64,000 bases of DNA, taken from IMG/VR virus record IMGVR_UViG_3300029959_000014, positions 1-64,000 of that record; one strand, given 5' to 3'. A model generated the notes under the pieces. The model searched no databases. It saw only the letters and a program-made list of their open reading frames with translations, and was not told the origin of the DNA. The position numbers were made by a program, and so were the translations under genes. Source of the stretch: a virus. Below are positions 517 through 57,227 of the stretch, in pieces (position 1 is the first letter of the stretch; each line of letters opens with the position of its first letter).

Positions 517-582
517 ATTTAAATAATATAAGTTATATTATAAAAAGATTACGGTCCAACCACTAGTTTTATATAACGGCAT

Positions 583-778: not shown

Positions 779-1393
779 ATGCCAAAGAAAGGTGAAAAGA
801 TGCCTGAAGAATGGAAAGAAAAAATAAGAAAAGCACATCTCGGCAGATCTCATCCATGGCAAGTCGGAATTCCTTTGAGTGACGAGCACAAAGAAAATAT
901 TAGAAAGTCTAGATTGGGTTCGTCATCGTGGAACAAAGGATTAAATTTGAGTGATGAACACAAAAGAAAGATTGGAGAGTCTAATACTGGAAAAATAATT
1001 TCAAGAGAATCTATCGACAAGGCATTAGAGACAAGAAAGTTAAATAATTATCCGGTATTAGAAAATAATCCAAATTGGAAAGGTGGGATTTCATATGGAA
1101 ATTACTGTCCAAAGTTTAATAAAAAGTTTAAAGAAAATGTTAGAAATTTCTTTGGTAATGTATGTGTAATATGTGGGAAAACTAAAGAACATAATTCGAA
1201 TTATGAATTAGCAATACACCATGTAAATTATAACCCATATTCAATGTGCGATGATAGTCCTAAAATGTTCGTTCCATTGTGTATAGGATGTCATAATAAA
1301 ACAAGGACAAATGTAGAATACTGGAAAGTGTATTTCACATCATTAATAAACGAAAAATATGAAGGAAAATGTTATGATGTAGAATTATTATAA
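779..1393 (+). CDS. HNH homing endonuclease with NUMOD3-like repeats
   Basis: It carries repeated SDEHKxxIxxSxxG modules and a C-terminal HNH/zinc motif RNFFGNVCVICGK...HHVNYNP...CIGCHNK. It is one of only two plus-strand genes. Confidence 0.75.
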   Translation: MPKKGEKMPEEWKEKIRKAHLGRSHPWQVGIPLSDEHKENIRKSRLGSSSWNKGLNLSDEHKRKIGESNTGKIISRESIDKALETRKLNNYPVLENNPNWKGGISYGNYCPKFNKKFKENVRNFFGNVCVICGKTKEHNSNYELAIHHVNYNPYSMCDDSPKMFVPLCIGCHNKTRTNVEYWKVYFTSLINEKYEGKCYDVELL

Positions 1394-6078: not shown

Positions 6079-6336
6079 GTGATCACTTTAAAATTTGTTT
6101 TATAAAAATAAAAGGTTGCTTATTAGTTACGTTGTTCTTGATCTGTCATTTTTGGATTCCTGTTAGTGCGCAAACTTTGTTGTAAACTTTACGGACAAAA
6201 CTAACCTTTGTTTCAGCAATTACTTTATCAATTTCATTACCGGTGTTACCTTGTGGTGTCAAGTCCTTGTTGAACAGTGATGGTCGTCTCAATTTGTTTC
6301 CTCGTCTAAATTAACTATAAATTGCACAATATTCAC

Positions 6337-6713: not shown

Positions 6714-9059
6714 TTAGAAGCCAAATTTTTGTAGATTGGTTTGACCTTTTATTGCTGTGTTCCATTCAATGTCAACTGCCCAGAAATATGATTCAAGTTT
6801 CTTCTTTATGGTTTTTTCAGCCATTAATTTCCAATCTACTAGATGTGATATTTGTGAGGTATCAAATCCATCATCTATACATATTGTTTCTCCATGTTTA
6901 AGGTGGACCAATCTTGGTTTTTCTCCTTCTTGGATTGTATAGTTGAAGTGTTGTAATGCATAGGTTTTCCCATCAGCCCAAGCATTCTTTTCACCATTGT
7001 AATTGGTCTTACGAAGTTCTCTAGGGATGGATATATCGTAGATATTGGCTGTTCCATCAAGAACCGATCGGTAATGATCACGGACGAATTTTGTTGCTTT
7101 TTCAACTTCACCTTTAAGTAGAGTTGTTTCTAATAAATAAGATAGACACTGTTTGGTCATTATTGAATTATCTGAACGTTTTATTTCAAGTCCCATGAAT
7201 TTAAATTCATCGCAATCTCTACCTTCTTCCCAGATGAGATGACCAGCATACTTCTTCTTACTAGCCTGTGATCTATCATTGGATTTTGGCTTAAAGATTA
7301 TACGACGAAATAATTTTTCAGATTTCAATTTGAAATGGATTTTACATCCTTGTTCATCGGACCACTTTACTAATTCTTCATTTAACCATTTTTCAAAGTA
7401 TAAACATTCGGAGCCTGTTTTGACCTCAGAAAAGAAAACGGAGTCCGTATCGCCGTAGATTACCGATTTCCCCTTCAATTTGACGAGTTCTTGAATATGT
7501 TTATTGATCTTTTGCCCAGTGGCAGTTACGAATGCTGCTTTTTCTTCATCATAACATTCAGATGACTCTGCGCCCATAATTCCATAAATAGAGTTCACCA
7601 GAGCCTTTGCTGCGGAATCACGTGCACTAGCACCGTCTAATCCACGATTCTTCTGATCTCTATAGACTTCACGCAGATCCATAAGTTTTTGAGTGGACTT
7701 GTGAATTATTCCATCGCAGTCACTAGAAAGTTCGTAGGCTAAAATTATGTGTGGGTAAAGGGAATTCAAGTCAACTGTTGCTACCCACTCATGTACACCG
7801 AGTTTTGGAGTGACAACTAATGCACCTGGAAACTTCGGTCCATCATCTTCATCGTCACCTTTGTATTTACGGCGAGGAAGGGGTTTGATGCCTTCATGTC
7901 GAACATAGGTGGCAATGATGGTGCTGTTGTGTAGACTTTCAGTAATTTTGTTCCCTGCGATAAATCGTATGGATTCAAAGAATTTGTAGAGTCCAAGTTT
8001 CTTGTCAATTACTTTGAGGGCCTTAATATCGTTTTTGCAGTATGCTATGAAATCATCCCATCGTTCAGCAACAATAATATCATTGATGATTGGCCCAAGA
8101 TCTTGATATGTGTATGCTGCTTCTTTTAGAAGTGATTTGTCAGATATGACTGATTTAAGACCATTAGATTCTCTTTGACCTTTACCAACATTGTATTTTT
8201 TGAATGCTTCCATCATATCGAGACATGCACGACCAGGAAGATAGGATCTGAATTGTTCACGCTTCTTATATATGGTTATCTTCGTTGATGGTTCAGCATA
8301 ACGACATAGACTTTTCTTTAGTGTTCCTTGGGTTCGTAGAATTTTAGCACGATTAATAATATATGGTATGTCGAATTGATCACTGTTCCATGCAGCAAGA
8401 ATATCTGGATTAAGTTCTTGGATATAAGCCATTACCATTTGGTAGAGTTCTTGTTCAGTCTCACACATGAATTGATCGGGATCATTTGATTTACCAATTG
8501 CGTAAGTGAATACGACTTCCTTGTCATTGTAGTTGTTGCCAATTTGGATAGATACGATTGGGGCAGTTGCTTCTTTTGGTCCAGTAAATCCACCAGTATT
8601 GTCCCAAGTCTCAATATCAAAATACATTACAAGGGGATCCATAGGATGATCGACTTCAACTGGAATTGGCTTATTGTCTATTACTTTGTAAGCATAACGA
8701 ATTTTATGATCGATCAGGAATCGCTTATCAAATAATACATCGCTTTCACGAGTGAACGAATATCCAAGATCTCGAACATCTCGAACATCAGTAGGAATGT
8801 TTACAATAACTTTTCTAATTTCGTTATGTTTATAGTCTAATAGGATTTCATCTTCAATTCGTTTAATTGCTGGATGAGAAAACTTTGTTGCTTCATTAGC
8901 AGGCACATATAAGTATGGTTCATATGGAAATGAATGAGTTGCAGTGACCATGGGATCTTCGTAACATCGAGAATAGAGATTTACAATTGGTATACCACTA
9001 TGTCTGTCAATGTAATAACCAGATTCCATGACCACATAAGTGCGATCATCAGCATTCAT
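6714..9059 (-). CDS. polB: family B DNA polymerase
   Basis: Exo I FDIET, motif A DLNSLYP, motif B KALVNSIYG and motif C YGDTDS are all present in order. At 781 aa it is compact. Confidence 0.92.
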   Translation of the reverse strand: MNADDRTYVVMESGYYIDRHSGIPIVNLYSRCYEDPMVTATHSFPYEPYLYVPANEATKFSHPAIKRIEDEILLDYKHNEIRKVIVNIPTDVRDVRDLGYSFTRESDVLFDKRFLIDHKIRYAYKVIDNKPIPVEVDHPMDPLVMYFDIETWDNTGGFTGPKEATAPIVSIQIGNNYNDKEVVFTYAIGKSNDPDQFMCETEQELYQMVMAYIQELNPDILAAWNSDQFDIPYIINRAKILRTQGTLKKSLCRYAEPSTKITIYKKREQFRSYLPGRACLDMMEAFKKYNVGKGQRESNGLKSVISDKSLLKEAAYTYQDLGPIINDIIVAERWDDFIAYCKNDIKALKVIDKKLGLYKFFESIRFIAGNKITESLHNSTIIATYVRHEGIKPLPRRKYKGDDEDDGPKFPGALVVTPKLGVHEWVATVDLNSLYPHIILAYELSSDCDGIIHKSTQKLMDLREVYRDQKNRGLDGASARDSAAKALVNSIYGIMGAESSECYDEEKAAFVTATGQKINKHIQELVKLKGKSVIYGDTDSVFFSEVKTGSECLYFEKWLNEELVKWSDEQGCKIHFKLKSEKLFRRIIFKPKSNDRSQASKKKYAGHLIWEEGRDCDEFKFMGLEIKRSDNSIMTKQCLSYLLETTLLKGEVEKATKFVRDHYRSVLDGTANIYDISIPRELRKTNYNGEKNAWADGKTYALQHFNYTIQEGEKPRLVHLKHGETICIDDGFDTSQISHLVDWKLMAEKTIKKKLESYFWAVDIEWNTAIKGQTNLQKFGF

Positions 9060-9079
9060 AACGATATATTTGTATTTAC

Positions 9080-9089
9080 TATTATAAAA
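9080..9089 (-). promoter_or_regulatory. TTTTATAATA promoter box 20 nt upstream of the polB ATG
   Basis: The exact 10-mer occurs at the same distance in many genes. Confidence 0.6.
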
Positions 9090-10768: not shown

Positions 10769-11494
10769 TTAATCACTCTCAATTCTAGGAGCCAGCATAT
10801 AGTAGCCAATTTCACAGCCACCAACTTGTATACTGATTTTACATGGCATGTCATTACCAGATGAAAATTCCACATCGCCCTTTAGATGTTTGAATAGACG
10901 TTTCATATAATCCATGTTATAGAGGCTACTGTTGTTGTCTACAGTTATCATGCCATTATCAATCTCGAAGGTGAGTTTATCATGATCGTTGCTAACGTAG
11001 AAGTGTGAATGGTTGTTTTGAATGTGAACACGAATTTTATCATAGTATGGTGAAGTTTTAGTCAGGAACTTACGCATGTCACTGGCCTTAATAATGGTTT
11101 TAGAAGTCCATATCATGGTTGGTTCGTTAGGTTCCTTTTTAACAACAGCATCAGCATCGTGCTTAAACACGCTACTATATTTACCACTTTCAAATTTCAA
11201 CATTGTTAATGTTTTATTTTCATCAGCAATCTGACTAATAGTTACAAATCCATAGGTGAGGTTGGCAGATGTTCGTAGGTTTTCAAGTTTAATAACAATG
11301 TCCTGTTCAGTGAGATCATAACACTCAAATACACTAGTTGGAATGGTCAGATTCACTAATGCGACATTTGCGAGATCAACAAACTTAACAATGATACCAT
11401 CAGTTTTAAAGTGCAGGGTAACTTCATCTTCACGAATAGCACACATCTGATTAATTATGTCTCTAAAGTGTAGATACTTGATAACAGTAGACAT
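10769..11494 (-). CDS. pcna: PCNA-type DNA polymerase sliding clamp
   Basis: The C-terminus GCEIGYYMLAPRIESD matches the PCNA signature (L.YYLAPKIEDE). The N-terminal DGIIVKFVDLANVALVNLTIPTSVFECYDL aligns to the first PCNA domain. Confidence 0.8.
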   Translation of the reverse strand: MSTVIKYLHFRDIINQMCAIREDEVTLHFKTDGIIVKFVDLANVALVNLTIPTSVFECYDLTEQDIVIKLENLRTSANLTYGFVTISQIADENKTLTMLKFESGKYSSVFKHDADAVVKKEPNEPTMIWTSKTIIKASDMRKFLTKTSPYYDKIRVHIQNNHSHFYVSNDHDKLTFEIDNGMITVDNNSSLYNMDYMKRLFKHLKGDVEFSSGNDMPCKISIQVGGCEIGYYMLAPRIESD

Positions 11495-11513: not shown

Positions 11514-11523
11514 TATTATAAAA
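11514..11523 (-). promoter_or_regulatory. TTTTATAATA box 19 nt upstream of the PCNA gene ATG
   Basis: It has the same motif and geometry as the other copies. Confidence 0.55.
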
Positions 11524-11938: not shown

Positions 11939-12156
11939 GTAATGTTGGTGTTAGTATTATAAAAACTAGTTGATCGGTGTATGGATTACTAATTTAGCCC
12001 TCAATCTTTTCCCAACCAATGTCGATGTGATTCCACATCCAATCATTGAGCATCTCACTTATTTCATCATCGGAAGTGTCGTCATCAACTTCCAGAGTTG
12101 TTGTTTGTTTACACTTCACTAAATTCATTCCCACGTAAAATTCAACCTTCATAACA

Positions 12157-12814: not shown

Positions 12815-13021
12815 TTACTTGTATGATGGAATTTTACTCATGATCCATGCAATTAATTTTTCCTTGAGATCGCTATTTCGAGTGCGATGAAGGTAGACGT
12901 TATAAACGGTTGCTATACAAAGTCCAAGTATACATATGATGCCGATGATCATTGTGAGATAAGGTTCCATACTAGTATTTTGGCGTTGAGGTTTAAAATA
13001 GTTACGTTTTATTAAATCCAA
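12815..13021 (-). CDS. small TM protein
   Basis: It has a central hydrophobic helix. Confidence 0.35.
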   Translation of the reverse strand: MDLIKRNYFKPQRQNTSMEPYLTMIIGIICILGLCIATVYNVYLHRTRNSDLKEKLIAWIMSKIPSYK

Positions 13022-13704: not shown

Positions 13705-15081
13705 TTAGATGAGTATTCCTACTCGTTTTCTAATGTCTGATATGTTTTCATCAATTAGAAGTTTTCCGTTGCTGTAGACGAGTGGTAGGTTGTCGAATCG
13801 ACCTGCCTTTGATTCTTTACCTGGAGTAGTTTTATTGACATTGTGCCATACTCCATTACGCTTTACCGCGCTGCACTTCATAGCAAATCGATTGGTGTCC
13901 CTGTTGTGATTTTGAAGAAGATTTCCACCACAACCAAATATAATGTTACTTGGAGCAAACTTATGCTTGATTACAGTTTCATTGTAGATTTTCTCTACCA
14001 TTGCAATATCGACACCATCGCCAATAATTATACTGATATGAGGATCTAGAACTTTATAGCCATGATCGTTTATGGTTCCTCCATAACAATCCCAAAGTGC
14101 TTGGAGAATTACTGGGGCATTTATTTCATGGCTTCCAGAATCAGGACGACACACAATACGACCTTTGCGATTCATTATCAATGACTTTAGTTCTTTACAG
14201 AAGTATTCATTGATTGCATGTTTCCAATCATAACTATCAATGACCAGTGAAATTATACAATCATCACCATATAGTTTATCGGTGGTTTCAATGATGTGTC
14301 GATAAGCCTCTAGTTCGTGATCTTTACCCCATGAAGTGATCGTGCTGTGTTCTGCTGCAACCACAGATACTCCGATTGGGAAAGTGTTGTCTGGGTGATA
14401 ATACCAACGAATTTTGTCTATTGCTGGGTTGTTGTCAGTTCCAATGAAATTTAGAAGATGTCCGATTCCACACATTTCAGCGCTCATCAATGAACTTGCA
14501 CCACGAAGGCCAAAGTCATTGAGGTGAACTGGGCTTACATCTTCGCCCGCTAGATCACAATACCTCTTAATGGTTTTATAAAATGCATGACTGATAGTTG
14601 CAGTATTGGTCATCGCATAGCAATGCATGAGCAAACTCTCAACGTAATTAGTAAGCCATGGAACTTTCGGATCAGTGTTTTCCAGTGCTAATACAGGAGT
14701 TCCTGGTTTTACAATGGTTCCTTCTGGGAGCGCATAAATGTTTATCGGTAAGTTTCCACCATGGGCCTTTTTAATGTGTTCCCAACCTTCATAATTGAAG
14801 AATGGTTTTCCGAATATCCCATTGCTAATTATACTGGATTCTTCAATAAAATCACGATCTATATAACTATCAATGAACCCATATTCTTTGAGGACAAATT
14901 GAAGTCCACACCATACAATTTCATTGAATTGTGCTCCATTACGTGGTTCCATGTAACTATACATTACTTCAAGATCCGGTGGATACTGAAAGTGGTGAGT
15001 TTGCTTGTAAGCATCCGTCAAATTGGGAAATGATCTTTCTGGCATAGTTCTCATCAACTTATAATTGTTATAACTGCTCAT
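13705..15081 (-). CDS. NAMPT: nicotinamide phosphoribosyltransferase (NAMPT)
   Basis: There is collinear similarity to NAMPT across the whole protein: DAYKQTHHFQYPP, ALPEGTIV.PGTPVLALENTDP...WLTNY, DFGLRG, AAEHSTITSWGKDHE, RPDSG, IIIGDGVD and IFGCGGNLLQ. Confidence 0.93.
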   Translation of the reverse strand: MSSYNNYKLMRTMPERSFPNLTDAYKQTHHFQYPPDLEVMYSYMEPRNGAQFNEIVWCGLQFVLKEYGFIDSYIDRDFIEESSIISNGIFGKPFFNYEGWEHIKKAHGGNLPINIYALPEGTIVKPGTPVLALENTDPKVPWLTNYVESLLMHCYAMTNTATISHAFYKTIKRYCDLAGEDVSPVHLNDFGLRGASSLMSAEMCGIGHLLNFIGTDNNPAIDKIRWYYHPDNTFPIGVSVVAAEHSTITSWGKDHELEAYRHIIETTDKLYGDDCIISLVIDSYDWKHAINEYFCKELKSLIMNRKGRIVCRPDSGSHEINAPVILQALWDCYGGTINDHGYKVLDPHISIIIGDGVDIAMVEKIYNETVIKHKFAPSNIIFGCGGNLLQNHNRDTNRFAMKCSAVKRNGVWHNVNKTTPGKESKAGRFDNLPLVYSNGKLLIDENISDIRKRVGILI

Positions 15082-17809: not shown

Positions 17810-19849
17810 TTAAAAAGTTATTTTCATAACTCTTTCTGTTGCACCCTTAACCTTCACAGTTACAGAAGATCGCTTGGTAGTAGAAAATCCTAGACCACTT
17901 AACTGATCTGTTGTTGATTTTACTGCTGACTTGCTAGACAAGGCTTCAAATACTCGTTTATGTTCATATAATTCTTGCTTTAGATACTCGTTGTAAAACC
18001 CTGATGGACTTTCAATGTTTATACAGTCCTTAAGCATGAAGAATACATGTCTATGACCAATTCCATCCTGTTCATCCCAGTAATTTGGTGAATACATTAT
18101 AACACTTACTGGAATAAACTGATTAGTTTTTATGTTCCACACATCTCGCGATGACATTTGAGATGATAACTTCTCCTGTATACTAAATCCATTACTATCT
18201 AATGTTACTTCTGCAACTACTACATTTTCTCCCGGTCGAAGTTCTTTATTATAAATAAATTCAAAGATCTGTCCATCAAATTCAATTTCTGCTTTGAAAC
18301 CTTCTTTACCACCTCGATTATTATACTGATGAACAAAGAACTTGTATACACCGTGAGACATACTTCGTAGATCAGTGTAAATGATGTTCTCTACTGCTGG
18401 AACACCTTCACGTGGTTGAGTAATATCCACATCGAGTATCCCACTACTTTTGTGTTTATATCCTTTATTGCTAAAGTAAATATGATTATTGCTTGGTTCT
18501 ATGCAATGAGCATCAAGATCATTGGGATCATGTTTACTGTTGTCATTCCACTGAATTGAAAATCGCAGGACTCCATCTACATTTCCACCAGCCATTTTTA
18601 CATTGGCTTTCATAGTAGAATCAGTGATGTTACCTGTGTATGCCCATGAGAATGCATTGTTCCACTTAAACATTGATTTACTATCAGCCTTTGCTGGTGC
18701 AATCAATGATACCATATTAGATGATAGTTTATTCTCAAATAACACTTCAATTTCGCGCACAGATGGCAACATATCACTTATGAATTTAGATACTGGGATT
18801 TCTTCTACTTTTGAGAACTTTTTAGGATCTACAGCAATATCTGATTTCAGACTTTCAAATATATCAGAACTTCCAGTAATACGCTTTGCTGCATCACGAT
18901 TACTAAACAGTATATTGTTGACTGTTATGTCATCAAGCGTTGCATATCTTCTACCAAGTGATGGTAGATATCCAAGTTCCTCTACTGTTTTTTGAGCATC
19001 TTCAAGCATTTTCTTTGTAAAGATTGCTTTAGGGCGCTTGTAATTTGTAGGGGCAACCACCTTCTCGTATCGTTTTACTGCTTCATCGAGTTCCATACCG
19101 GAGGTTATGTCAATTAGAAGTGTCCCTATACTGTGATTACGGATTTTACCAATTACCGGACCTGCTTCAACTGAATATTCCCAAGCAAACACATCATGAT
19201 CTGTTGCTGAACTATACAACAATTTATAGTGTTTAAACTTCTCAAGAACTGATTTCCATTCTTCACCTTTATACAATGTATTGGAATTTATAAGTTCAAG
19301 AACTGTGTCAATACTTTCACTGGACAGTTCATCAAGTGATCGCTTAAATACATCTTTAACTGCCTGATAATTACCTTTAACTGTGTCTAGAGTTTCACGA
19401 CCACTATAAACAAATCTAGATGGAAGATCAACATACAGGTGTTGCCATTCTTTTGCAATACCATCAATAAGTTCAAGATTTTTATCAACCACAACCTTAC
19501 TTTCTTTTGTTACAAATACACCGGAGATTGATTTACTCTTAATATATTTGTGTAGCGCATTAATTACTGTCTGGAATGTTAGATCATTTACTTGGAAATC
19601 CCAAATAGTAGATACCTTACCATCTTTAAGAATGACTACATTTCCAAGATTCTTAATGAATCTTCTACAACATGAACAATCATATTCTCGTCGCTTACGA
19701 TAGATTTCATTAGTTCCCACAGGAAATGCATCAAGATATACATTCCACATTTCATCGAGATCTACATCTACTGTGAACAGATGATTGATGTTAGATGTTT
19801 TGACTTCAAAATTTTTCTGAAGTGCTTTTTTAAATTCTACAAATTCCAT
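17810..19849 (-). CDS. large hypothetical protein (679 aa)
   Basis: It is the longest orphan. It has a CSCCRRF cluster and a DVDLD acidic motif, with no confident family match. Confidence 0.5.
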   Translation of the reverse strand: MEFVEFKKALQKNFEVKTSNINHLFTVDVDLDEMWNVYLDAFPVGTNEIYRKRREYDCSCCRRFIKNLGNVVILKDGKVSTIWDFQVNDLTFQTVINALHKYIKSKSISGVFVTKESKVVVDKNLELIDGIAKEWQHLYVDLPSRFVYSGRETLDTVKGNYQAVKDVFKRSLDELSSESIDTVLELINSNTLYKGEEWKSVLEKFKHYKLLYSSATDHDVFAWEYSVEAGPVIGKIRNHSIGTLLIDITSGMELDEAVKRYEKVVAPTNYKRPKAIFTKKMLEDAQKTVEELGYLPSLGRRYATLDDITVNNILFSNRDAAKRITGSSDIFESLKSDIAVDPKKFSKVEEIPVSKFISDMLPSVREIEVLFENKLSSNMVSLIAPAKADSKSMFKWNNAFSWAYTGNITDSTMKANVKMAGGNVDGVLRFSIQWNDNSKHDPNDLDAHCIEPSNNHIYFSNKGYKHKSSGILDVDITQPREGVPAVENIIYTDLRSMSHGVYKFFVHQYNNRGGKEGFKAEIEFDGQIFEFIYNKELRPGENVVVAEVTLDSNGFSIQEKLSSQMSSRDVWNIKTNQFIPVSVIMYSPNYWDEQDGIGHRHVFFMLKDCINIESPSGFYNEYLKQELYEHKRVFEALSSKSAVKSTTDQLSGLGFSTTKRSSVTVKVKGATERVMKITF

Positions 19850-20548: not shown

Positions 20549-21175
20549 TTAACTTCCTCTATTAAACTTTGTAACTTCATTGCCATATTGATCCCAACCA
20601 TCTACTACTTCTCTAGCAAATATTTCAATACGAGATACATCACCATATAACAATTCTAATCTTCTTCTAACTTCATCTGGTTTGCGTGAATGCTCTCTAA
20701 CCTTTGCTTCTACAACGCTATGAACTGATGCTGATACACGCTTAACTCCTTTACCTTTTATACCTAATATCACATATTCTGGATTTGATCGTGTTGATAC
20801 AGCACCCATACCCCAAAATAATTTATCATTTTTAGTCTTCTTAATCCATACGAAAGCAACCACTTTAAATTTAAATCCCCAATAATTCATTAATTCAATA
20901 CTATCTTGCATCATTGGACCAGTTGTCCACATATACATTACAGAATTTAGATTTGATATCTCATCGATATATAATTTCATATCTTTTAATTCTGGTAATG
21001 TCATACATGGATATTTAAATTCAGCACCACGATTACCAGCAGTTGCCTTATCATTATACGACCACGGTGGATCGATATATATTAAATCATACATCAATGT
21101 CAACTCCCTTATAAGTTTTAAAATATTCTTTATCTGATATGTAACATTTCCAATTAGTTTCTTTAAGCATTTCAA
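20549..21175 (-). CDS. MT-A70 family N6-adenine methyltransferase
   Basis: It has the IYIDPPW catalytic motif in a family-typical context. Confidence 0.7.
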   Translation of the reverse strand: MKCLKKLIGNVTYQIKNILKLIRELTLMYDLIYIDPPWSYNDKATAGNRGAEFKYPCMTLPELKDMKLYIDEISNLNSVMYMWTTGPMMQDSIELMNYWGFKFKVVAFVWIKKTKNDKLFWGMGAVSTRSNPEYVILGIKGKGVKRVSASVHSVVEAKVREHSRKPDEVRRRLELLYGDVSRIEIFAREVVDGWDQYGNEVTKFNRGS

Positions 21176-22126
21176 TAAACATTTCAGTATATTTTATTTT
21201 AGTTTCTTTATTTTTCATTCTCGAATGACATGAATGACACATAGTTATAAATAATTTAGAACTATTATCACACAATGATTTTGGATTCTCCATTACATGA
21301 TGGACTGTCATTTTTTCTTTATTCTCATCTTCAGTTTTACCACATAATACACATTTCTTCCCCAAAATATTCTCACACGTTCTTTAAAACTATCGCGTTC
21401 AAATCTATGACAATACCCAGTATTTCTTAATGTTACACCATCATTCCAATGTGGATGTTTTGAATCTCGCAATGAAACATTTCTTAATATAGTATTTTTT
21501 CTAACAATACAACCACAAGATTCTTGTTTTCCATTAATTAAACTAGTTGTTTTTATCCATTTTTCATTACCACAATCACATTTACATTTCCAGTAACAAT
21601 TATTATTATTTCTAATTTCATATTCACTAGATGTTGTAAGTTTTCCAAATCTTTTATTTGATATATCAATTATCCTAGATGGTTTTTTGATACAACCACA
21701 TGAAACATACTTATTTTTTAATTTTTTACATGACAATAATACCATATTACCACAATTACATTGACACATCCATTTTACTTTAAAATTAGTAGTTTCATCA
21801 CAAATTGAATATAGACATTTAACATTACCTATTAATTTTCCAGTATAATCTAGTGACATTTTTAAATAATTTTGATTCATTTTGGTTGTAACTTGTTTAC
21901 AATTTATACTCTCCATTCTAATATTATTATTTAAATGATATGTATTTCTATAAACTTCAGTTTCACAAACAACACATTTACATAACCACCTTATTTTTAA
22001 TCTATCATTATCTCCATAATATTCCCATGAAATAATATCATAGTCATTAACAGTTTTCCCAGTATAATCAATTTTAGGACCATAGTGATAGTTTTTGTCA
22101 CTTGACATAACATTAGCAACGTTCAT
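21087..22126 (-). pseudogene. frameshift-disrupted HNH endonuclease (two overlapping ORFs, 21308-22126 and 21087-21365)
   Basis: The upstream ORF has triplicated W.C.C.CG zinc modules and ends ...RVRIFWGRN in the wrong frame. The downstream ORF resumes CVLCGKTEDENKEKMTVHHV...CHSCH, which is the HNH core of the paralogs at 779 and 23820. Confidence 0.5.
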
Positions 22127-22148
22127 TACTAGTGTAGTATGTGAGTAA

Positions 22149-22158
22149 TATTATAAAA
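22149..22158 (-). promoter_or_regulatory. TTTTATAATA box 22 nt upstream of the ATG
   Basis: It shares the motif with the other promoter boxes. Confidence 0.55.
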
Positions 22159-23819: not shown

Positions 23820-24710
23820 TTAAATAAAACATACCCCACCCATATAATTCTCAATCAATTCAATGAAATATGGTGTCCAATAATCCCATTCATTTTTATC
23901 ATGGTGCAATTTTGCATGACATGGCCTACATACACAAACATATTTCGTTTCTTCAAAAGGTAGTGTTCTTTCTTCTGGATAGATATGATGAATTATTGCA
24001 TCTTCATCGTTTTCTCCATGAACTTTACCACACATTATACAAGTATTTTTAAAGAAGTTTCTAACTCTTGCTTGATTATGTTTTTGTATAAATGTATGAT
24101 GATAACCATGATAATTTATAACATTTTTAAATACTGGATGATTTTCACCTTTACAATGTTCTCCAAACCATGTACCTTGACATTTAGTGCTGCAAAATGA
24201 CTTTTTATATATGTCAATAGAATGTTGAGTTCGAATTAATTCAACTCCACATTGAGCACAAACTGTTTTCACTCTTGGTATGTAAGTTGATCGCTCTTCA
24301 CCTTTTTTACCATGTTTCTTATACCAAGCACCAAAACACTTTTTAGAACAAAACTTTCCTCTACCCTCATTGATTACTCTAGAACGAGAAGATTCAAACT
24401 TAACACCACATTCTAGGCAAGTCATTTCAATATTTCCACCTTTCCATTGCGGACTTCCTGGACCTTTCATACGTTTAGACTGGGCAGTAAATTGACATTC
24501 TTTTGAACAAGTCTTATTATGCCCATTTCTAATTCGATAATATGTAGTTTTAATTTCTTTTCCACACTCCATACAAATTACTGTAAGTCTTCCATCATGA
24601 AACTCACCACGATCCAACATCGTTTTACATTCTTCAGAACAGGCATCTAACTTTTCATCACTTTCAAAATTAGATCCACAAATAATACATCTATTAAGCA
24701 TAGAAATCAA
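23820..24710 (-). CDS. HNH endonuclease with multiple zinc-ribbon modules
   Basis: It has repeated C..C...C..C units, then RNFFKNTCIMCGK...HHIYP...CRPCH, which is paralogous to 779-1393. Confidence 0.75.
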   Translation of the reverse strand: MISMLNRCIICGSNFESDEKLDACSEECKTMLDRGEFHDGRLTVICMECGKEIKTTYYRIRNGHNKTCSKECQFTAQSKRMKGPGSPQWKGGNIEMTCLECGVKFESSRSRVINEGRGKFCSKKCFGAWYKKHGKKGEERSTYIPRVKTVCAQCGVELIRTQHSIDIYKKSFCSTKCQGTWFGEHCKGENHPVFKNVINYHGYHHTFIQKHNQARVRNFFKNTCIMCGKVHGENDEDAIIHHIYPEERTLPFEETKYVCVCRPCHAKLHHDKNEWDYWTPYFIELIENYMGGVCFI

Positions 24711-28607: not shown

Positions 28608-29123
28608 CTATTCCGTAGGCATTTTACCATAATGTTCGATTACAATGCCACCATAAGTTAAACTACCAATCAATCGCATGTTGTCCTTAGTCTTCTTAAA
28701 ATAATACGATTTATTATAGCGTTTAACCCGAAAGCAAACCTTTTCCTTGCGAACAAGTATATCGAACAAATAGTGCCGCGCCAAATGTCTAGTAATATTA
28801 TAACGATCAGTAAAGTCAGTGGTAAAGTACACTTCATTATTCTTCCAATCATTCTCAAAAAACTCCATGAATAACCTATATAGACTTGAATCGTAATGTT
28901 GACAGGTATTCAGGCACTCAATCATCGGATCATCTAAAAACTTCCTACGCTTCTTACATCGATTATGTTCCACATCAACATACTTACAAATATTACAATG
29001 AAAACTAGGTGATAGTGTTTTTCGTGTTAATTGATCCTCATTATATTGTTCTATATTCTCAATAACTAAACCACTAGCATTACCAAGATCACTAACTTTA
29101 TTATGATTATTAATATTATCCAT
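28608..29123 (-). CDS. Cys-rich protein
   Basis: It has a CNICK...CKK...C..C cluster. Confidence 0.4.
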   Translation of the reverse strand: MDNINNHNKVSDLGNASGLVIENIEQYNEDQLTRKTLSPSFHCNICKYVDVEHNRCKKRRKFLDDPMIECLNTCQHYDSSLYRLFMEFFENDWKNNEVYFTTDFTDRYNITRHLARHYLFDILVRKEKVCFRVKRYNKSYYFKKTKDNMRLIGSLTYGGIVIEHYGKMPTE

Positions 29124-29200
29124 TACTATTTATATAAGTTAATTTTATAATATATAAAACTAACTGTTTAACACGATCAATATCTTTATATAGTGTTAGT

Positions 29201-30212: not shown

Positions 30213-30266
30213 ACTAGTATATAAGTATTAATATAGAAGTATTTAAATGTTCCCACTAAATTTATA

Positions 30267-31852: not shown

Positions 31853-31936
31853 ATAACTAATATTATGTTTTTACAATTATAAAATAGTAATGGTTACTAG
31901 GATCTTGGCGTCAAAATAGAAATTGTTACGCGAAGA

Positions 31937-32454: not shown

Positions 32455-32511
32455 ACTAGTATGTTAGCGTTAGTATTATAAAATAGTTATTATAAAGAAT
32501 AGGTGGTGTGG

Positions 32512-33102
32512 TCATTCACCAATTACTTGTTCGATCACCCTAGACGCTATATATGTGCTGTTGTCAAGGTTGTGCTGATCGGTGTTAATGATAGTGTATG
32601 GGTAGTTGAACATTTCTAGAATCATTTCGTAGCGGGACTGGATCATGGTAGCATACTGTGTGGTCATTTTTTCATTACGTTTTTGGCAACGTGCTGTTAG
32701 GGTAGTAGGATCGGCCTTGGTGAAGATTACGTGATCAATCCAGAGGGTGGGTGGTTGGTGACGTTCGATGTAATCGATTGCTTCTAGGGTTGTCCATCCA
32801 TATTGATCTTCAATTGCAAGTGATTGATAGACAAAGTTACAGATCATGGAACGATCACTAATGATGAGATCGCGCTTATCTGGTATGATGACTTCATTGT
32901 AAAGTTGTTCGCGATCTTTTGCAAACAATTCAATTAACTTTAATGCATCATCACATTGTTTAATAAGTGCAATGTTGTGTGCATAATATGGTTCTTTGAC
33001 GAATAGAGCATTGGTGAATAATGGATCACTGGATAATCTACGATGCATTGATGATTTACCACTAGCATCACAACCAGCCAGTGTTATTAATTTGCGTGTC
33101 AT
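32512..33102 (-). CDS. P-loop deoxynucleoside/deoxynucleotide (thymidylate-kinase-like) kinase
   Basis: It has Walker A LAGCDASGKSS, a VKEPYY block and an ERS-like ISDRSMICNFVY block. Confidence 0.5.
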   Translation of the reverse strand: MTRKLITLAGCDASGKSSMHRRLSSDPLFTNALFVKEPYYAHNIALIKQCDDALKLIELFAKDREQLYNEVIIPDKRDLIISDRSMICNFVYQSLAIEDQYGWTTLEAIDYIERHQPPTLWIDHVIFTKADPTTLTARCQKRNEKMTTQYATMIQSRYEMILEMFNYPYTIINTDQHNLDNSTYIASRVIEQVIGE

Positions 33103-33393
33103 AACTAGTATATTTGGTATGATGTTTTATAAAACTATTACATGTAAAGTTGATGTGATCACTAATTTTATATACGGACAATCACAACTATGTATTGTTA
33201 CTACTACTTTGACGGGCGGTATGTGACAAGAACCCCGCTTCAATTCTTGAAGCAAGAGTCTTCATAGCAAGAAACGCGCTTTATAGGTATAAACCTATTT
33301 AAGCGGCACTTGCGATTTAATGCTCTTATTTGTTAGGTGGTGTTTTGCTCCCATCACTTAACCATTAGTTTAATTGGCGTGAAGAATACATTC

Positions 33394-33417: not shown

Positions 33418-33429
33418 TTTTATATAATA
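33418..33429 (+). promoter_or_regulatory. TTTTATATAATA box 21 nt upstream of the plus-strand gene ATG
   Basis: It is the plus-orientation copy of the motif. Confidence 0.55.
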
Positions 33430-34542: not shown

Positions 34543-34686
34543 ATAATTTTATATGTAAGTGATAGTATAAAAATAAGATGTTATTCTAATGTGATATTTT
34601 GTTATTATAGTGAACAATATCAAGTTCACTTTGTCAGATGGATGAACAAGTTCTTGTGGTTATCATCGATCGTCATGTGGTGGTTA

Positions 34687-35046
34687 TCAAACTACAGCAA
34701 GTGTGACTTCATTGAGTTTAGAAATCAATCTCACGCTATTGTCAATTTTCTTTTTGTTGTATTGTCGTTCACGGAGTTCTTTGGCGATCACCTCGGGAGT
34801 TTTACTTAATCGGTAGACGTTGGTAGGTCGCCCGATATTGTTTTTAATTCGTTCGCTGATGGCAATGAAGTTGTCCTTGGTAAAGTCACTGATGATGTGG
34901 CTTACAACAGGCTGCTGGAGATCAGTCGCGCGTTCAAGTTCATGTTGAGTGAACTGTTTACGGGTTAAAATCTCTGTGAGAACTTCAGCCTTTTTGGGGT
35001 TGAGACCTAGGGTTTCAAGCGCCTTTATAATTTCTACTTGTTCCAT
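34687..35046 (-). CDS. winged-helix (MarR/TrmB-like) transcription regulator
   Basis: LGLNPKKAEVLTEIL..TQHELERATDLQQPVVSHII...IAISERI..GRPTNVYRL fits a wHTH. The likely start is the internal MEQVEII, which has ACTAGTATG and a TATA-like box at -22..-32. The 22-codon 5' extension in the ORF track is probably spurious. Confidence 0.4.
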   Translation of the reverse strand: MEQVEIIKALETLGLNPKKAEVLTEILTRKQFTQHELERATDLQQPVVSHIISDFTKDNFIAISERIKNNIGRPTNVYRLSKTPEVIAKELRERQYNKKKIDNSVRLISKLNEVTLAVV

Positions 35047-35234
35047 ACTAGTTAATATGATGTAATGAGATATATAATTATCGATTAGAAGGTAGTATAT
35101 ACTCAATGCCATTTACGAGGTGACTTGAATGTTTTACATTCGCATACAAGGTTGAATGTTGTATATAAGGCTTTAAATGCAAATGAAAGTGATTTTGGCG
35201 TGATTATTATATGTATGCGTATATAAAATAGAAG

Positions 35235-36122
35235 TTAAGTTGAATTCATATCTTCTAATTTGTTCTGGTAATAGGTGAAGATTGAACGTGGTGGAGACAT
35301 GAAATGTTTACGGGCTTCAGTGCTTACTTGTTTGGCAATTATCGGCATTGCGATCTTGACGTTTTTGAATTGTTCGGGGCCGATATCAGCAAGAACTTTA
35401 TCCAATGCCCCATAAATTTCACTGTCAGAAAGTGGTGGTAGTTCGACTTTATTGGGATCTATATCCTTTGGGATCTTATCAAGTTTTAAAGTATCGTGCT
35501 TTTCCTTGACGGCTAACAATCCATTGTTGTATGATGGTTTGTATGACTTGATTACAAAGCCCTCGATGTCTTGATGATCACGAAGCATACTGTCTCTGTA
35601 GGTGTAGAGATCTTCGATGCTGGTGTGTCTGGTGATTACCTGAACATCGATACATGGGATGTTACTGTGATGGCATTGTTGATGAAGGAAGTTATAGTGG
35701 GTGAATTGCTGGGTCTTGGAAGTCCATAGATCGAATGCTACGAATGATGGTTGATCATAGGTTTTAATACGGGTGGGAGATCGTCCTTTGGCCATCAACT
35801 CACCATAAAGGATGTAGTTATTACTCCAGTTACGAGCATCGAGTAATAGTTCCTTGATATTTTCTAGAAGTTGACCATCATCAATGCTTCGCGCAATACT
35901 CAAAAATGATGGATCTGCAATTGGTTGATTACGAGATCCCATTATGAGATTGTCTTCGTTGTCAAGATAGAAGCGAACATTGCTACCATCATGTTTAGGT
36001 TGCCAGAGAAGTTCTTCACCTAATATCATACCGGGACCAGGATACAATAATGCTATGCGATTGAGATGTGGATAAGTGATGTCACCGAGATTTAATGATA
36101 CTTGTTCTTTAACGTTAAACAT
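35235..36122 (-). CDS. ATP-dependent nucleotidyltransferase ligase (RNA/DNA ligase family)
   Basis: Motif I KHDGSN, motif III YILYGEL, motif IV EGFVIKSY and motif V LAVKEK are present in canonical order. Confidence 0.55.
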   Translation of the reverse strand: MFNVKEQVSLNLGDITYPHLNRIALLYPGPGMILGEELLWQPKHDGSNVRFYLDNEDNLIMGSRNQPIADPSFLSIARSIDDGQLLENIKELLLDARNWSNNYILYGELMAKGRSPTRIKTYDQPSFVAFDLWTSKTQQFTHYNFLHQQCHHSNIPCIDVQVITRHTSIEDLYTYRDSMLRDHQDIEGFVIKSYKPSYNNGLLAVKEKHDTLKLDKIPKDIDPNKVELPPLSDSEIYGALDKVLADIGPEQFKNVKIAMPIIAKQVSTEARKHFMSPPRSIFTYYQNKLEDMNST

Positions 36123-36640
36123 TAAGTGAACAAATATAATTTACCATATATAAAGAAAGAGATAAAAGTTATATAATAGAAATGTTAAAAAGGTGTCAAA
36201 TAGTTTGTTATAATCGTGTGATGGGATTGATCCATCAAATGATTTAGTGTGGTAATAAGAGAAAATCACGAAAATAATTATACATACATGTAACTCACCG
36301 GCTTCATTACTAGAATTATCCGGCCAAAAATATTAGATGGTGATGAACCAAGTCTACTATCAACGTGTGGATGGTTTGGAAATTTAATGATGGAGTCCAC
36401 ATCAGCCCATCGTATACCGCCATTCCATTAAGCGGTCAAGTTTGTTGTAATGTGATCATTGTGGAAGACTATTCATTGTTTATCCACATGTTTTAAACTT
36501 CTACCCGTGATAGCCGTAAATAACTCAATTGTTATCATTGTGGTCATCTATCTACCGTTTGTTTATTGACCAGCAGGGAAGTTCTAGTCTTGCATGAAGT
36601 TACCTTCATTCTGCACATTACATAACTTGTTTGCATTCTC

Positions 36641-36700
36641 GATATCACTCCCATGCCTGAATGCTAGGCCGAACGTCACGTTTGATATCCAACGTCAACC
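36641..36700. repeat. ~60-nt direct repeat unit 1 (GATATCACTCC...GTCACGTTTGATATCCAACG)
   Basis: A second copy lies at 36860-36915 and flanks the tRNA-like element. Confidence 0.45.
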
Positions 36701-36768
36701 GCTTATACTGTTTTTATCGGTTGAAATATCCTACAGGGCATCCATAATAAATGGTTGCTCAAGTTAGC

Positions 36769-36849
36769 AGTGGATTGATGATGGTGAAAGGAATTGAACC
36801 TTCGTTAACCAACATTAGACGATAGCAAACCGGTCAGACTATCGTAGTA
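36769..36849 (-). ncRNA. tRNA-like element a (7/7-bp acceptor GATGGTG/CACCATC plus T-arm GAAGG-TTCAATT-CCTTT, 81 nt)
   Basis: It has a perfect acceptor helix and a canonical T-loop, but the 49-nt interior (containing a 7-bp ACGATAG/CTATCGT stem) does not give a canonical D-arm and anticodon-arm fold. Confidence 0.4.
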
Positions 36850-36859
36850 ATACACCATC

Positions 36860-36915
36860 AATACCTTCTGATATCACTCCTACGGCGAAGGCAACCTGCG
36901 AGTCACGTTTGATAC
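36860..36915. repeat. ~60-nt direct repeat unit 2
   Basis: It pairs with 36641-36700. Confidence 0.45.
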
Positions 36916-37187
36916 CCAACGCACCAGATCGAGCGGTTTCACCTGGTGAATCACATTCCAACTTAATGGACTTGCCGCAGTGCTGATAACCAGCAATAGG
37001 AATTGCACCTATATCTCCACCAGGAACGATGGTGAGATTCTGTTACTCCATGCTGGTTAGAACTCTTTGTTCGGTCACCCAATTTGTTTCCATGATAACG
37101 CTCGTGGATAATCGCAGTAAACTTCCAAGCGGTAAATTCTGTTTATTCGTGCACTAATAAACTTATTGGTGGGTTTACTTCCACCTA

Positions 37188-37251
37188 TAACTGATGGGTG
37201 GATTCGAACCAACCCGTTGCACACCCATTGTGTCATCGGTTACGGTTGCCA
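37188..37251 (-). ncRNA. tRNA-like minihelix b (acceptor AACCGAT/ATCAGTT, T-arm GGTTCGAATCC)
   Basis: It has a T-loop TTCGAAT and a 6/7 acceptor pairing. Only ~19 nt separate the 5' acceptor strand from the T-arm, so the D and anticodon arms are absent. Confidence 0.4.
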
Positions 37252-37290
37252 CATTTGCGCAGATGTGGTTTACAACCATTTTATCAGGTT
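37243..37290. repeat. 48-nt direct repeat, copy 1
   Basis: It contains a CCACAT-loop8-ATGTGG hairpin and supplies the 5' acceptor strand of minihelix b. It is 47/48 identical to 37551-37598. Confidence 0.6.
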
Positions 37291-37403
37291 TTGGATTTGT
37301 TCCTGGGAAATTAAACCTGCAAAACGCCCACGGTTAACGAGCGTGCCTCGGCGGTTTAACAACTTTGATAATGGGGTTCTAAACCTGCTGAATTGAGACC
37401 CAC

Positions 37404-37461
37404 ATAACCAGTAGTGGATTCGAACCACTCCTCTTTCTCTTCCACCCGTCTGTGGCTGGTT
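37404..37461 (-). ncRNA. tRNA-like minihelix c (perfect T-arm AGTGG-TTCGAAT-CCACT)
   Basis: It has a 5/5 T-stem, an acceptor AACCAGC/ACTGGTT (6/7) and an internal CCAC-AGACGG-GTGG hairpin. Confidence 0.4.
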
Positions 37462-37510
37462 ACTCTCCTTACTCTCGCCTGGGATTTTTATCTCGCAGAG
37501 GATTTCAGGG

Positions 37511-37559
37511 ATAACCGATTGGGGATTCGAACCCCTTAATTCCCATTTGGTTTATCGGT
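37511..37559 (-). ncRNA. tRNA-like minihelix d (acceptor AACCGAT/ATCGGTT 7/7, T-arm GGGG-TTCGAAT-CCCC)
   Basis: It has a perfect 7-bp acceptor and a 17-nt linker to the T-arm. Its 5' strand lies within the 48-nt repeat copy 2. Confidence 0.45.
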
Positions 37560-37598
37560 TACGGTTGCCACATTTGCGCAGATGTGGTTTACAACCAT
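37551..37598. repeat. 48-nt direct repeat, copy 2
   Basis: It is a near-identical copy of 37243-37290. It is followed by a GNRA-capped hairpin GTTGGGATT-GCAA-AATCCAAC. Confidence 0.6.
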
Positions 37599-37784
37599 TT
37601 ATCCGTTTGTTGGATTTGCAATCCCAACCAGGCGTCTTACATTCCCTGTCACCTGCATTCCATCGTCGTAAAGACTTGCCTGCAGGGAAACCATCATACA
37701 AGATTTGACCTTGCACGATGGCTAATTCACTTACCGGGTCATCACTCCCGTATACATTATATTACACGTAATATTATTTAATAG

Positions 37785-38033
37785 TTACGAAATAATACTA
37801 GTAACCTCACCGTTATTGTGAAACGTATCAACGGCTTGATCATTGTATTCAATTACTTCGGCAAATACTTGATCACTTGGCACATAATCAGCCATAGCAT
37901 ATTTCATGGTCTTAAGACATTGTTTGACACTTTTGAATACAATGGCTTCCTCACGGTGATGAGCAAATCCTTTACGACCATAATAGATGGTATTGTTGTT
38001 TTCAGTGATCCACATAATTACTAGTGATGTCAT
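37785..38033 (-). CDS. hypothetical small protein
   Basis: It has a TTTTTATAATA box 20 nt upstream. Confidence 0.45.
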   Translation of the reverse strand: MTSLVIMWITENNNTIYYGRKGFAHHREEAIVFKSVKQCLKTMKYAMADYVPSDQVFAEVIEYNDQAVDTFHNNGEVTSIIS

Positions 38034-38053: not shown

Positions 38054-38063
38054 TATTATAAAA
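38054..38063 (-). promoter_or_regulatory. TTTTATAATA box
   Basis: It lies 20 nt upstream of the ATG of 37785-38033. Confidence 0.55.
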
Positions 38064-39033: not shown

Positions 39034-39091
39034 ATGATAATATACGAGTTAATATTATAAAATAGTTACTAGTAGATCTAATACTGAAATC

Positions 39092-40320: not shown

Positions 40321-41397
40321 TCATCCCCCTACACATAAATTAAATAGTGGACATTCTCGATTATTTGTTAGTAATTTTTTGCGGAACGAAGTGAAAGTTT
40401 CTGATTGCCAGAGATCATCTATGTTGGTTATGTTATTGATGTGAATTCCTTTGCATTGATCATTACTAAATGAGCAAGGATAGAAATTTCCAGTAGTATC
40501 TAAATATGCACTGAATAGTGTTGATTCACAAGATTCAATAACATCTTTAAATTGTTCCATTTGTTTATTGCATAGACACATAGGTGATGAACAAGAATCA
40601 AACCCTATACTGATGTTATTTGATAACGCATAGGATATAAAGTCGTCAAGCATCGATTGGGTGATGGGATGGAAATTGTCCTGTGCACGACCTTTTGGTT
40701 TTACCCAAAGGAATACAATTGCATTGGGATTGAAGTATGAGTTATCTTTGACTTCTTGGAGAATTTTCATTGCGTCATTGTAAGTTTCCATTGAAAGAAA
40801 TTGGTGGACATTGACTTGTGCTAATTTACTTGGAACATTATTCATATCACACTGCATGTAGTCAACCATCAGTATAGTATCTTCTAATTTGTAATTGCTA
40901 ATTGCTACTGCACCACAATGATTTCGAATAGCATGAAGTTGATCATCGACACCCATACCATGTAAATATTCGTGTGAAGCAATTGTTATGTTTGGTATGA
41001 TATTTTTACTTCTAGTGTATTTTAGGATGTCTTCCAGATGTGGAATGTAATTAAGACTTCCAACACCATATGCAATCTGCATCAATATGGGATTCATTGA
41101 TTTGATTTTATCAAGACTAGATTTGAATGTATCAATGTCAATTGTATCATTTGATGGCATACATGACTTGTAACACCAAGGACAACAATGATCACACGAT
41201 GAAGAAAGTTCCCAATCGAGATGTTCAAACATCGGTGCAACTTGTGGATCATTACTATGGTTGAATCCTTTACGTTCCATGTAACCATTCAATTTATTAA
41301 ACCTCACATTATACTGATCATTAGTAATGATCTTGTATTTACTATTTTCTTTGATGGTTAGTTTCAATTTATTCATACTATACACCAACATATACAT
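40321..41397 (-). CDS. radical-SAM-like enzyme with a Cys-rich (SPASM/twitch-like) C-terminal region
   Basis: CDHCCPWCY fits CxxxCxxC(Y). C-terminal CSSPMCLC...CES...CSF...C...CPLFNLC is a candidate auxiliary-cluster region. The glycine-rich SAM motif is not clear. Confidence 0.4.
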   Translation of the reverse strand: MYMLVYSMNKLKLTIKENSKYKIITNDQYNVRFNKLNGYMERKGFNHSNDPQVAPMFEHLDWELSSSCDHCCPWCYKSCMPSNDTIDIDTFKSSLDKIKSMNPILMQIAYGVGSLNYIPHLEDILKYTRSKNIIPNITIASHEYLHGMGVDDQLHAIRNHCGAVAISNYKLEDTILMVDYMQCDMNNVPSKLAQVNVHQFLSMETYNDAMKILQEVKDNSYFNPNAIVFLWVKPKGRAQDNFHPITQSMLDDFISYALSNNISIGFDSCSSPMCLCNKQMEQFKDVIESCESTLFSAYLDTTGNFYPCSFSNDQCKGIHINNITNIDDLWQSETFTSFRKKLLTNNRECPLFNLCVGG

Positions 41398-47880: not shown

Positions 47881-48127
47881 ATAATGTCAATTGAAAGTTA
47901 TAATCTTCCCACAACTCTTTATATAATTCTCCCTTTTTACCACAATCGTGTAAATGAGACTTAACATGAATTTCAAAATCCATGGTAGAATTAATTATTT
48001 CATCATAAATTTCAGATGAAATTTTCCTGGCATTCTTTGAAGTGTAAACTCTTCCAAGCCCCAATACTTTCACCTGTCTAATTAATCGTTTACACAACTC
48101 CATTTTATATTCATCATATTTGTTCAT
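47843..48127 (-). CDS. hypothetical basic protein
   Basis: It is a co-oriented ORF. Confidence 0.35.
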   Translation of the reverse strand: MNKYDEYKMELCKRLIRQVKVLGLGRVYTSKNARKISSEIYDEIINSTMDFEIHVKSHLHDCGKKGELYKELWEDYNFQLTLYVDGQTKKKKVL

Positions 48128-52834: not shown

Positions 52835-52855
52835 ACTAGTAATGTATGTGCGTTA

Positions 52856-57173: not shown

Positions 57174-57227
57174 ACTAATGTTCACCTTTTTAATGTTCAC
57201 CTTTTTATTTTAAGATGATTACAACCG

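Follow-up and report, generated by a model that had tools for sequence, protein, structure and literature searches.

A TATA-like box at a fixed distance from start codons in an uncultivated large tailed virus suggests archaeal-type promoters of probably leaderless genes

Archaea that use leaderless transcription have the promoter box of leaderless genes about 26 nucleotides (nt) from the gene start (22-24 nt in Halobacterium salinarum), with a ribosome binding site at 6-8 nt on their other genes, whereas in bacterial leaderless genes a Pribnow box lies 6-10 nt from the start (PMC6028130, GeneMarkS-2). Here a promoter-like element is described in 64,000 nt of viral DNA (positions 1 to 64,000 of the IMG/VR virus record IMGVR_UViG_3300029959_000014; this whole stretch is called the window), where the 10-mer TTTTATAATA precedes the gene encoding a family-B DNA polymerase (polB) and other genes at a nearly constant distance. 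Its closest described counterpart is the TBP/TFB-dependent leaderless promoter of archaea (GeneMarkS-2 'group D', with Sulfolobus, Pyrobaculum and haloarchaea), with which it shares the TTTAWAWA 8-mer, a distance of about 22-26 nt, the lack of a Shine-Dalgarno (SD) motif on the genes behind the box, GGTG or GGAGG SD motifs on closely following genes and larger gaps before the box genes. It differs from these promoters in its unusual uniformity (an identical 10-mer at 14 sites), in the presence of TAAC and GTAAAY extensions and in a B recognition element (BRE) that is weakly visible. Based on its position and context, TTTTATAATA is probably the TATA element of archaeal-type promoters that would initiate transcription at or next to the ATG, giving leaderless mRNAs translated without SD, while internal genes would be translated via SD motifs.

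The arrangement can be seen at the start of polB, where box, spacer and the ATG at 9059 follow one another on the minus strand:

9080-9089, minus strand: putative TATA box of the polB promoter, TTTTATAATA, with core TTTATAAT; GTAAAT lies next to it
9060-9079, minus strand: spacer of 20 nt between box and ATG, G-poor and without SD
6714-9059, minus strand: polB, encoding a family-B DNA polymerase of 781 amino acids (aa), first gene in its transcription unit

The exact 10-mer is present in 14 copies in the window compared to 1.35 +/- 1.15 expected from dinucleotide shuffles, none of which reached 14. Twelve of these copies are oriented along the minus (gene) strand, which holds 134 of the 145 crudely called open reading frames (ORFs) of the window. 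For 10 of the 14, the distance from the end of the box to a called ATG is 19-22 nt, an arrangement with a chance of about 1%; besides polB, these are the first nine boxes listed below. Three of the remaining four copies (last three lines) can be fitted by accepting GTG as a start codon, a doubled box and a box in inverted orientation, and the copy at 236, with its closest ATG only 10 nt off, does not fit.

536-545, minus strand: exact box, 19 nt before ATG 516 (83-aa ORF)
11514-11523, minus strand: exact box of the PCNA gene, 19 nt before ATG 11494 (gene 10769-11494)
11955-11964, minus strand: exact box followed by CTAAC, 19 nt before ATG 11935 (122-aa ORF)
22149-22158, minus strand: exact box, 22 nt before ATG 22126 (272-aa HNH-like protein); ACTAGTA abuts the ATG
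32474-32483, minus strand: exact box followed by CTAAC, 19 nt before ATG 32454; ACTAGT abuts the ATG
38054-38063, minus strand: exact box followed by CTAAC, 20 nt before ATG 38033
39053-39062, minus strand: exact box followed by TTAAC, 19 nt before ATG 39033
52856-52865, minus strand: exact box followed by TAAC, 21 nt before ATG 52834; ACTAGT abuts the ATG
63119-63128, minus strand: exact box, 20 nt before ATG 63098 (149-aa ORF)
63846-63855, plus strand: exact box, 20-23 nt before GTG (63876 or 63879), with ACTAGT overlapping the start; the gene (167 aa, plus strand) runs off the window and was called on an overlapping contig
55869-55893, minus strand: two boxes in tandem, TTTTATAATA (55884-55893) and TTTTATAATC (55869-55878), the latter 20 nt before an ATG
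29143-29152, plus strand: inverted exact box, 19 nt upstream of the ATG of 28608-29123 (minus strand)

When up to two mismatches were allowed, 24 genes carried a box 17-25 nt upstream and the spacing showed a single sharp peak at 19-22 nt. Variant boxes at this distance include the following:

33125-33134, minus strand: variant box TTTTATAAAA, 22 nt before the ATG of a gene related to deoxynucleoside monophosphate/thymidylate kinases (32512-33102)
31875-31884, minus strand: variant box TTTTATAATT followed by GTAAAA, 22 nt before ATG 31852
34563-34572, minus strand: variant box TTTTATACTA, 20 nt before ATG 34542
6098-6107, minus strand: variant box TTTTATAAAA, 19 nt before ATG 6078 (283-aa ORF)
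33420-33429, plus strand: variant box TTATATAATA with one mismatch, 21 nt before ATG 33451 (plus-strand gene)

Boxes of the window read TTTATAAT, TTTATATA or TTTATAAA, and all fit the archaeal TATA consensus TTTAWAWA. Counted from the A of the ATG, the 8-mer TTTATAAT begins at -28 to -31, which places its centre near -25 to -27. The analysis was extended to a composite of 123.7 kb, built through an identical RuvB on a 91-kb ENA contig and a 66,420-bp IMG/VR contig; here a TTTAWA begins between -34 and -26 upstream of 42 genes, a fivefold enrichment per position over the rest of the -60 to -7 interval, and the bin from -30 to -28 accounts for 29 of these genes. With its end 19-22 nt from the ATG, and not 6-10 nt, the box has the geometry of archaeal leaderless genes and not that of bacterial ones. 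A preliminary description of this DNA, made from the letters alone, had proposed an identical 10-mer 19-22 nt before at least ten starts, a distance that would stay fixed on tabulation and a box centre about 25-27 nt from the first codon. Distance and centre are borne out by these counts, and so are ten genes (polB, PCNA and those starting at 22126, 38033, 52834 and 63098 among them); the gene at 33451, which had also been named, carries only the one-mismatch variant.

The same pattern could in principle be an artefact of mechanical ORF calling and of base composition, the 10-mer and the intergenic DNA both being A/T-rich; the genome is 66% A+T, and the one-mismatch variants of TTTTATAATA amount to 76 copies, 36 of them on the non-coding strand and many within genes. 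This explanation is already refuted by four controls: the copy number is attained in no shuffle, 10 of the 14 copies fall within a 4-nt spacing range, internal ATGs give a flat profile, and polB and PCNA of related viruses keep the box position though the spacer sequence has diverged.

Inspection of the 50 nt upstream of each ORF revealed two classes of gene start. Box genes have a G-poor spacer without SD, and many of the others have GGTG, GGAGG or GAGGT about 6-10 nt before the ATG. An SD-like motif was found in 2 of 24 box genes vs 55 of 121 others (Fisher p = 4.6e-4), and G accounts for 9% of positions -18 to -1 in box genes vs 20% in the others. In the extended genome the gap to the upstream gene has a median of 76 nt for box genes (10% below 30 nt) and of 29 nt for SD genes (51% below 30 nt). 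Gap sizes together with the SD split indicate that a box gene is typically the first of its transcription unit and an SD gene an internal one. The clear SD motifs on internal genes imply that the host ribosome is SD-competent, yet first genes avoid SD. The second class is exemplified by a RuvB-like gene:

57228-58166, minus strand: RuvB-like gene of the other start class, with GCGGAGGT at SD distance and no TATA box at -30

According to the mechanism that we propose, host TBP would bind TTTATAAT, after which TFB and the archaeal RNA polymerase would assemble and begin transcription about 25-27 bp downstream of the box centre, that is, at the A of the ATG or a few nt from it. The first gene of each unit would thus yield a leaderless or near-leaderless mRNA, picked up by the ribosome through its 5'-terminal AUG with no need for SD, and the downstream genes would be translated via their GGTG/GGAGG sites. 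The 20-nt spacer of polB would be untranscribed promoter DNA, the region melted at initiation, and not a leader. The rigid spacing of 19-22 nt would follow from a TATA-to-start distance set by TBP, TFB and RNA polymerase, combined with the requirement that transcription begin at the start codon.

Metagenomic relatives of polB with 33-61% identity were found on contigs of up to 135 kb, and six of these loci were analyzed, with polB identities of 61% (L001), 60% (L087), 49% (L002), 48% (L088), 41% (L089) and 40% (L003). The position of the box is kept in all six. Upstream of the polB ATG it reads TTTTATAAAT at 21 nt (L001), TTTTTTATAC at 22 nt (L087), TTTTATATTT at 22 nt (L002), TTTATACA at about 21 nt (L088) and TTTTATGTTA at 18 nt (L003). 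When these loci were pooled with the window (seven loci), 61 genes had a TTTAWA beginning between -33 and -27; the distribution was highest at -28 to -31, and internal ATGs, taken as a control, gave a flat one. In remoter relatives (L004-L006, 31-41% identical) polB is placed inside operons behind an SD. As to gene context, polB is flanked by clusters of sugar and glycosyltransferase genes in L001, L087 and L088, and inteins that contain homing endonucleases occur in the polB homologues P0004, P0005, P0011, P0014, P0018, P0022 and P0029.

By contig arithmetic the genome has at least 131 kb. The minus strand of the window holds small genes and replication genes, and a structural module on the plus strand begins at about 75.7 kb, encoding the terminase large subunit (TerL), a portal, a tail tube (Phage_tube_2), an ORF of 3,107 aa and proteins with PKD, DUF2341 and Laminin-G domains; an ATP-dependent DNA ligase is encoded as well. 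The virus is thus a siphovirus-like tailed virus, and a Borg-like element was dropped from consideration in view of the terminase, portal and tail tube genes. The 3,107-aa ORF (4049-13369 of L096, about 96.7-106 kb of the composite) lies behind the tail tube gene and matches no Pfam family; as the presumed tape measure it implies a very long tail. It was also considered as a virion RNA polymerase, which was rejected on account of this tape-measure-like place and the lack of a Pfam hit. No RNA polymerase, TBP, TFB, sigma or peptidoglycan hydrolase family was detected among the about 88 ORFs of the composite that were scanned, many of them ORFans. A winged helix-turn-helix protein (34687-35112) was evaluated as a TFE homologue and likewise rejected, with weak matches to TFIIE-alpha, TrmB and MarR and no zinc-ribbon motif seen.

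Replication genes of the virus show archaeal affinity, in particular the sliding clamp:

10769-11494, minus strand: archaeal-type PCNA sliding clamp of 241 aa, a full-length match to archaeal PCNAs

Matches of this protein include the PCNA of Haloferax volcanii (3hi8, E = 4e-16), that of Archaeoglobus (1rwz) and the clamps of Pyrococcus, Thermococcus and Sulfolobus. Among 50,697 phage records it matched 11, belonging to archaeal viruses only (phiH, phiCh1, HATV-3, HFTV1 and the Methanomicrobiales-associated vir524). An exhaustive HMMER search of 1.84 billion representatives, with cluster lookups, gave Methanospirillum hungatei and Methanoregulaceae as the closest named cellular PCNAs, and a word-indexed search returned the query itself as the sole match. 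For polB the best isolate matches were haloarchaeal tailed viruses (25% identity). In a scan of species-representative genomes a 49%-identical polB relative was binned with Methanospirillum, and after five viral-like contigs the matches were cellular PolB of Methanomicrobiales and other archaea (25-28% identity). No match was found by megablast of 5.3 kb around polB against the 50,697 phage records, nor by exact-protein lookups of polB and of the Methanospirillum-named relative. The HRTV/HCTV group, phiH/phiCh1 and vir524 share with this virus an archaeal-type PolB and/or PCNA module at an identity of only 22-27%. Compared to these haloarchaeal and methanogen tailed viruses it is much larger, has 35% G+C (GC) and a 3,107-aa tape measure, and its terminase matches bacterial phages and not archaeal viruses. 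Chromosomal loci totalling 0.98 Mb, mostly from Methanomicrobiales, showed a peak of A/T-only 7-mers at -27 to -30 from ATGs with non-coding sequence upstream, indicating that a subset of leaderless genes with the same geometry is present in the candidate host lineage; Methanospirillum loci alone offered too few genes (6 of 46) for a usable TATA consensus. Altogether an archaeal host is likely, with Methanomicrobiales as our best guess.

A number of observations weigh against the archaeal interpretation. Gene calls are crude, being the longest ATG ORFs, and the search for gene families covered about 88 ORFs in 123.7 kb of a genome of at least 131 kb. The term leaderless is drawn from the geometry, the alternative being a bacterial start about 6 nt past the box with a leader of 14-17 nt. 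The BRE-like signal is weak: the upstream flank of the box is nearly G-free, AAC occurs about 7-9 nt upstream of it in the window, and in the relatives positions -6 to -3 are A-rich and G-poor, with A the commonest base at three of the four. Among the genomes run as controls through the same pipeline (BCP78, SIRV2 and vir524), the archaeal virus SIRV2 had been taken as a positive control and did not reproduce the -30 peak; it showed a sharp TTTAWA peak at -45 to -43, so the -30 position does not follow from an archaeal host alone, and vir524 (58% GC) showed no TTTAWA signal. SIRV2 thus shares a TATA-like box at a fixed distance, which there implies short leaders and which here, at -28 to -31, would imply leaderless mRNAs. 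RuvB is bacterial-type (E = 3e-44 to Thermotoga RuvB) and about 36% identical to many bacterial RuvBs, an identity that is alike across lineages and therefore carries no lineage signal. A 679-aa protein of the family phrog_1735 (17810-19849, minus strand) shares about 60% identity with proteins from Bacillus Bastille-like phages, and a P22 antirepressor domain is present, although vir524 likewise has an antirepressor. The terminase has few and distant matches, mostly in cyanophages. Further polB relatives were assigned to bins of Saccharibacteria, Paceibacterota, Syntrophaceae and Babeliales, which we read as composition-driven mis-binning of viral contigs. Finally, as already noted in the preliminary description, the hexamer TATAAT is embedded in the commonest box of the window, standing in register in 15 of 26 window boxes. 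Structural genes were dropped as a host marker, the terminase having only distant matches and the portal none among the phage records.

Several of these points would be accommodated by a promoter of bacterial phage type, in which TATAAT acts as a sigma-70-type -10 element and transcription starts some 6-7 nt further on, near TAAC, producing a G-poor leader of 13-17 nt without SD that is translated independently of SD (through S1 or an unstructured leader). TAAC is placed where such a start would fall, and the hexamer, the bacterial-type RuvB, the protein shared with Bacillus phages, the bacterial bins of some relatives and a terminase nearest to those of cyanophages agree with it. Even so, we consider this alternative unlikely. 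The box lacks a -35 element, the bases before TATAAT are TT and not the TG extension, and the box lies about 20 nt from the ATG instead of 6-10 nt. Two-hexamer sigma-70 sites (117 and 109 vs 106 expected) and intrinsic terminators (10 and 9 vs 9 expected) are both at the level of the shuffles. Boxes of the relatives, which keep the position, read mostly TTTATATA, TTTATACA or TTTATACC; they fit the archaeal TATA consensus and carry TATATA or TATACA, without the critical final T of the -10 hexamer, and TAnnnT stands in register in 8 of their 35 boxes vs 15 of 26 in the window. The embedded TATAAT can therefore be regarded as a peculiarity of the TATA variant favoured by this virus and not as a conserved feature. 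In addition, SD is used on internal genes and avoided by first genes of the same genome, there is no known reason why a leader should have one fixed length, and PCNA is of archaeal type and present in no bacterial phage record searched. The Bacillus phage BCP78 (39% GC), analyzed as a control, showed no such peak (4 sites in the peak positions vs 10 elsewhere), and 62 of its 97 genes have an SD. The TBP-type TATA box with a leaderless or near-leaderless mRNA, which the preliminary description had put forward, is the reading favoured by geometry, SD pattern, relatives and gene content.

Conserved bases were found beside the box. In 7 of the 14 exact copies TAAC occurs 0-2 nt past the 10-mer; the preliminary description had mentioned a TAACAC-like stretch that often follows the box. 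In the composite, GTAAAY lies 0-2 nt past the TATA 8-mer at 13 sites vs 1-6 at control offsets; nine of the 13 belong to the structural module beyond the window (TerL, putative capsid and fibre genes), inside the window it occurs at 9072-9079 (polB), near 31870 and near 36140, and the motif is also found at polB of the relative L001. The palindrome ACTAGT is over-represented, with 38 copies in the window vs 11 expected, 20 of them in the non-coding 15% of the sequence. The earlier statement that it very often precedes the ATG was too strong, as it abuts about 12 start codons, only 3 of them among the ten exact-box genes, and it precedes SD-led genes too. It is absent from L001, L002 and L003 and occurs 1-3 times per about 22 kb in L087-L089. 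Examples in the window are:

12971-12976, 22128-22133, 30213-30218, 32455-32460, 52835-52840 and 58669-58692: ACTAGT sites

ACTAGT could act as initiator or operator, or be a target of methylation. More speculatively, and with low probability, a promoter code may be superimposed on the host TATA box, in which TTTTATAATA plus TAAC would mark early and replication genes and TATA plus 0-2 nt plus GTAAAY would mark structural genes and polB; a viral or host factor might read it to time expression, with the lineage-specific ACTAGT serving as initiator or operator.

These adjoining bases also bear on the possibility that the box is read by a factor or polymerase encoded by the virus itself, either a late sigma factor like gp55 of T4, acting with the sliding clamp on a lone -10 box resembling TATAAATA, or a phage RNA polymerase. 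A nearly invariant 10-mer without -35 resembles phage-specific promoters, and the virus encodes a clamp and many ORFs without detectable family, so that the likeness to the T4 late promoter (TATAAATA, gp55/gp33 plus clamp) extends to a lone A/T-rich box and a virus-encoded clamp. This explanation seems to us very improbable nonetheless. In addition to the families named above, no gp55/gp33 match was obtained in the ORFs scanned, many of which are ORFans, and the only giant ORF sits in the tape-measure position. T4-type late mRNAs carry SD leaders, in contrast to the box genes. The same TATA geometry precedes early, replication, TerL, putative capsid and tail-fibre genes and not one temporal class; a single promoter type for all gene classes fits the general machinery of the host. 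Moreover, the boxes of the relatives fit the general archaeal TATA consensus and not a private motif. The virus-encoded polymerase promoter, offered as a second option in the preliminary description, is thus disfavoured.

The mechanism itself is already known, since it corresponds to textbook archaeal gene expression; what is new is its presence in an undescribed clade of large viruses. A literature search with the 10-mer gave unrelated matches only, and no paper describing this virus clade was found. The combination of promoter and SD architecture provides evidence of an archaeal host that is independent of homology and drawn from the nucleotide sequence only, for an uncultivated clade of large tailed viruses (about 130-135 kb, 35% GC) whose contigs are now binned to bacterial and archaeal genomes alike. 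In a genome made up mostly of ORFans the box fixes true start codons and transcription units. It may also represent a strong and compact consensus promoter, a candidate for methanogen genetics, and it points to possible class-specific elements adjoining the TATA box.

Auxiliary genes and endonuclease-like ORFs of the window include the following:

13705-15081: nicotinamide phosphoribosyltransferase
40321-41397: Fe-S protein with a SPASM domain (possibly of radical-SAM type)
48124-48504: pyrimidine-dimer glycosylase similar to T4 endoV
20549-21094: MT-A70 methyltransferase
35235-36122: RNA ligase
779-1393 (plus strand), 21308-22126 and 23820-24710: HNH/NUMOD3 endonuclease-like ORFs, one on the opposite strand

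No RuvA was seen beside the bacterial-type RuvB, the other replication genes of the virus being archaeal in appearance. The phrog_1735 family has no assigned function and was found in 557 phage records, those of Salmonella and Klebsiella phages among them, and the conservation of its member here is unusually high for this genome. An ORF-poor stretch (36123-37784) extends over 1.6 kb without a long ORF, and the region 36001-37900 has 40.7% GC vs about 34% in the window. Within the ORF-poor stretch an Rfam tRNA was detected (36779-36859, minus strand, 32.3 bits), whose anticodon loop is about 10 nt longer than usual and whose D-arm is poor; ARAGORN did not call it, with the intron option either; this element may be a degenerate or intron-bearing tRNA. 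ARAGORN called a tRNA-Leu(CAA) at 62189-62271 (minus strand), with an odd T-loop (GGTGCAACTCC) and a score under the Rfam gathering threshold. Perfect or near-perfect tandem duplications occur between genes at 57176-57207 and 58650-58694, the first with 2.1 copies of a 15-mer that repeats the SD region AAAAGGTGAACATTA and the second with 2.4 copies of an 18-mer containing ACTAGT.

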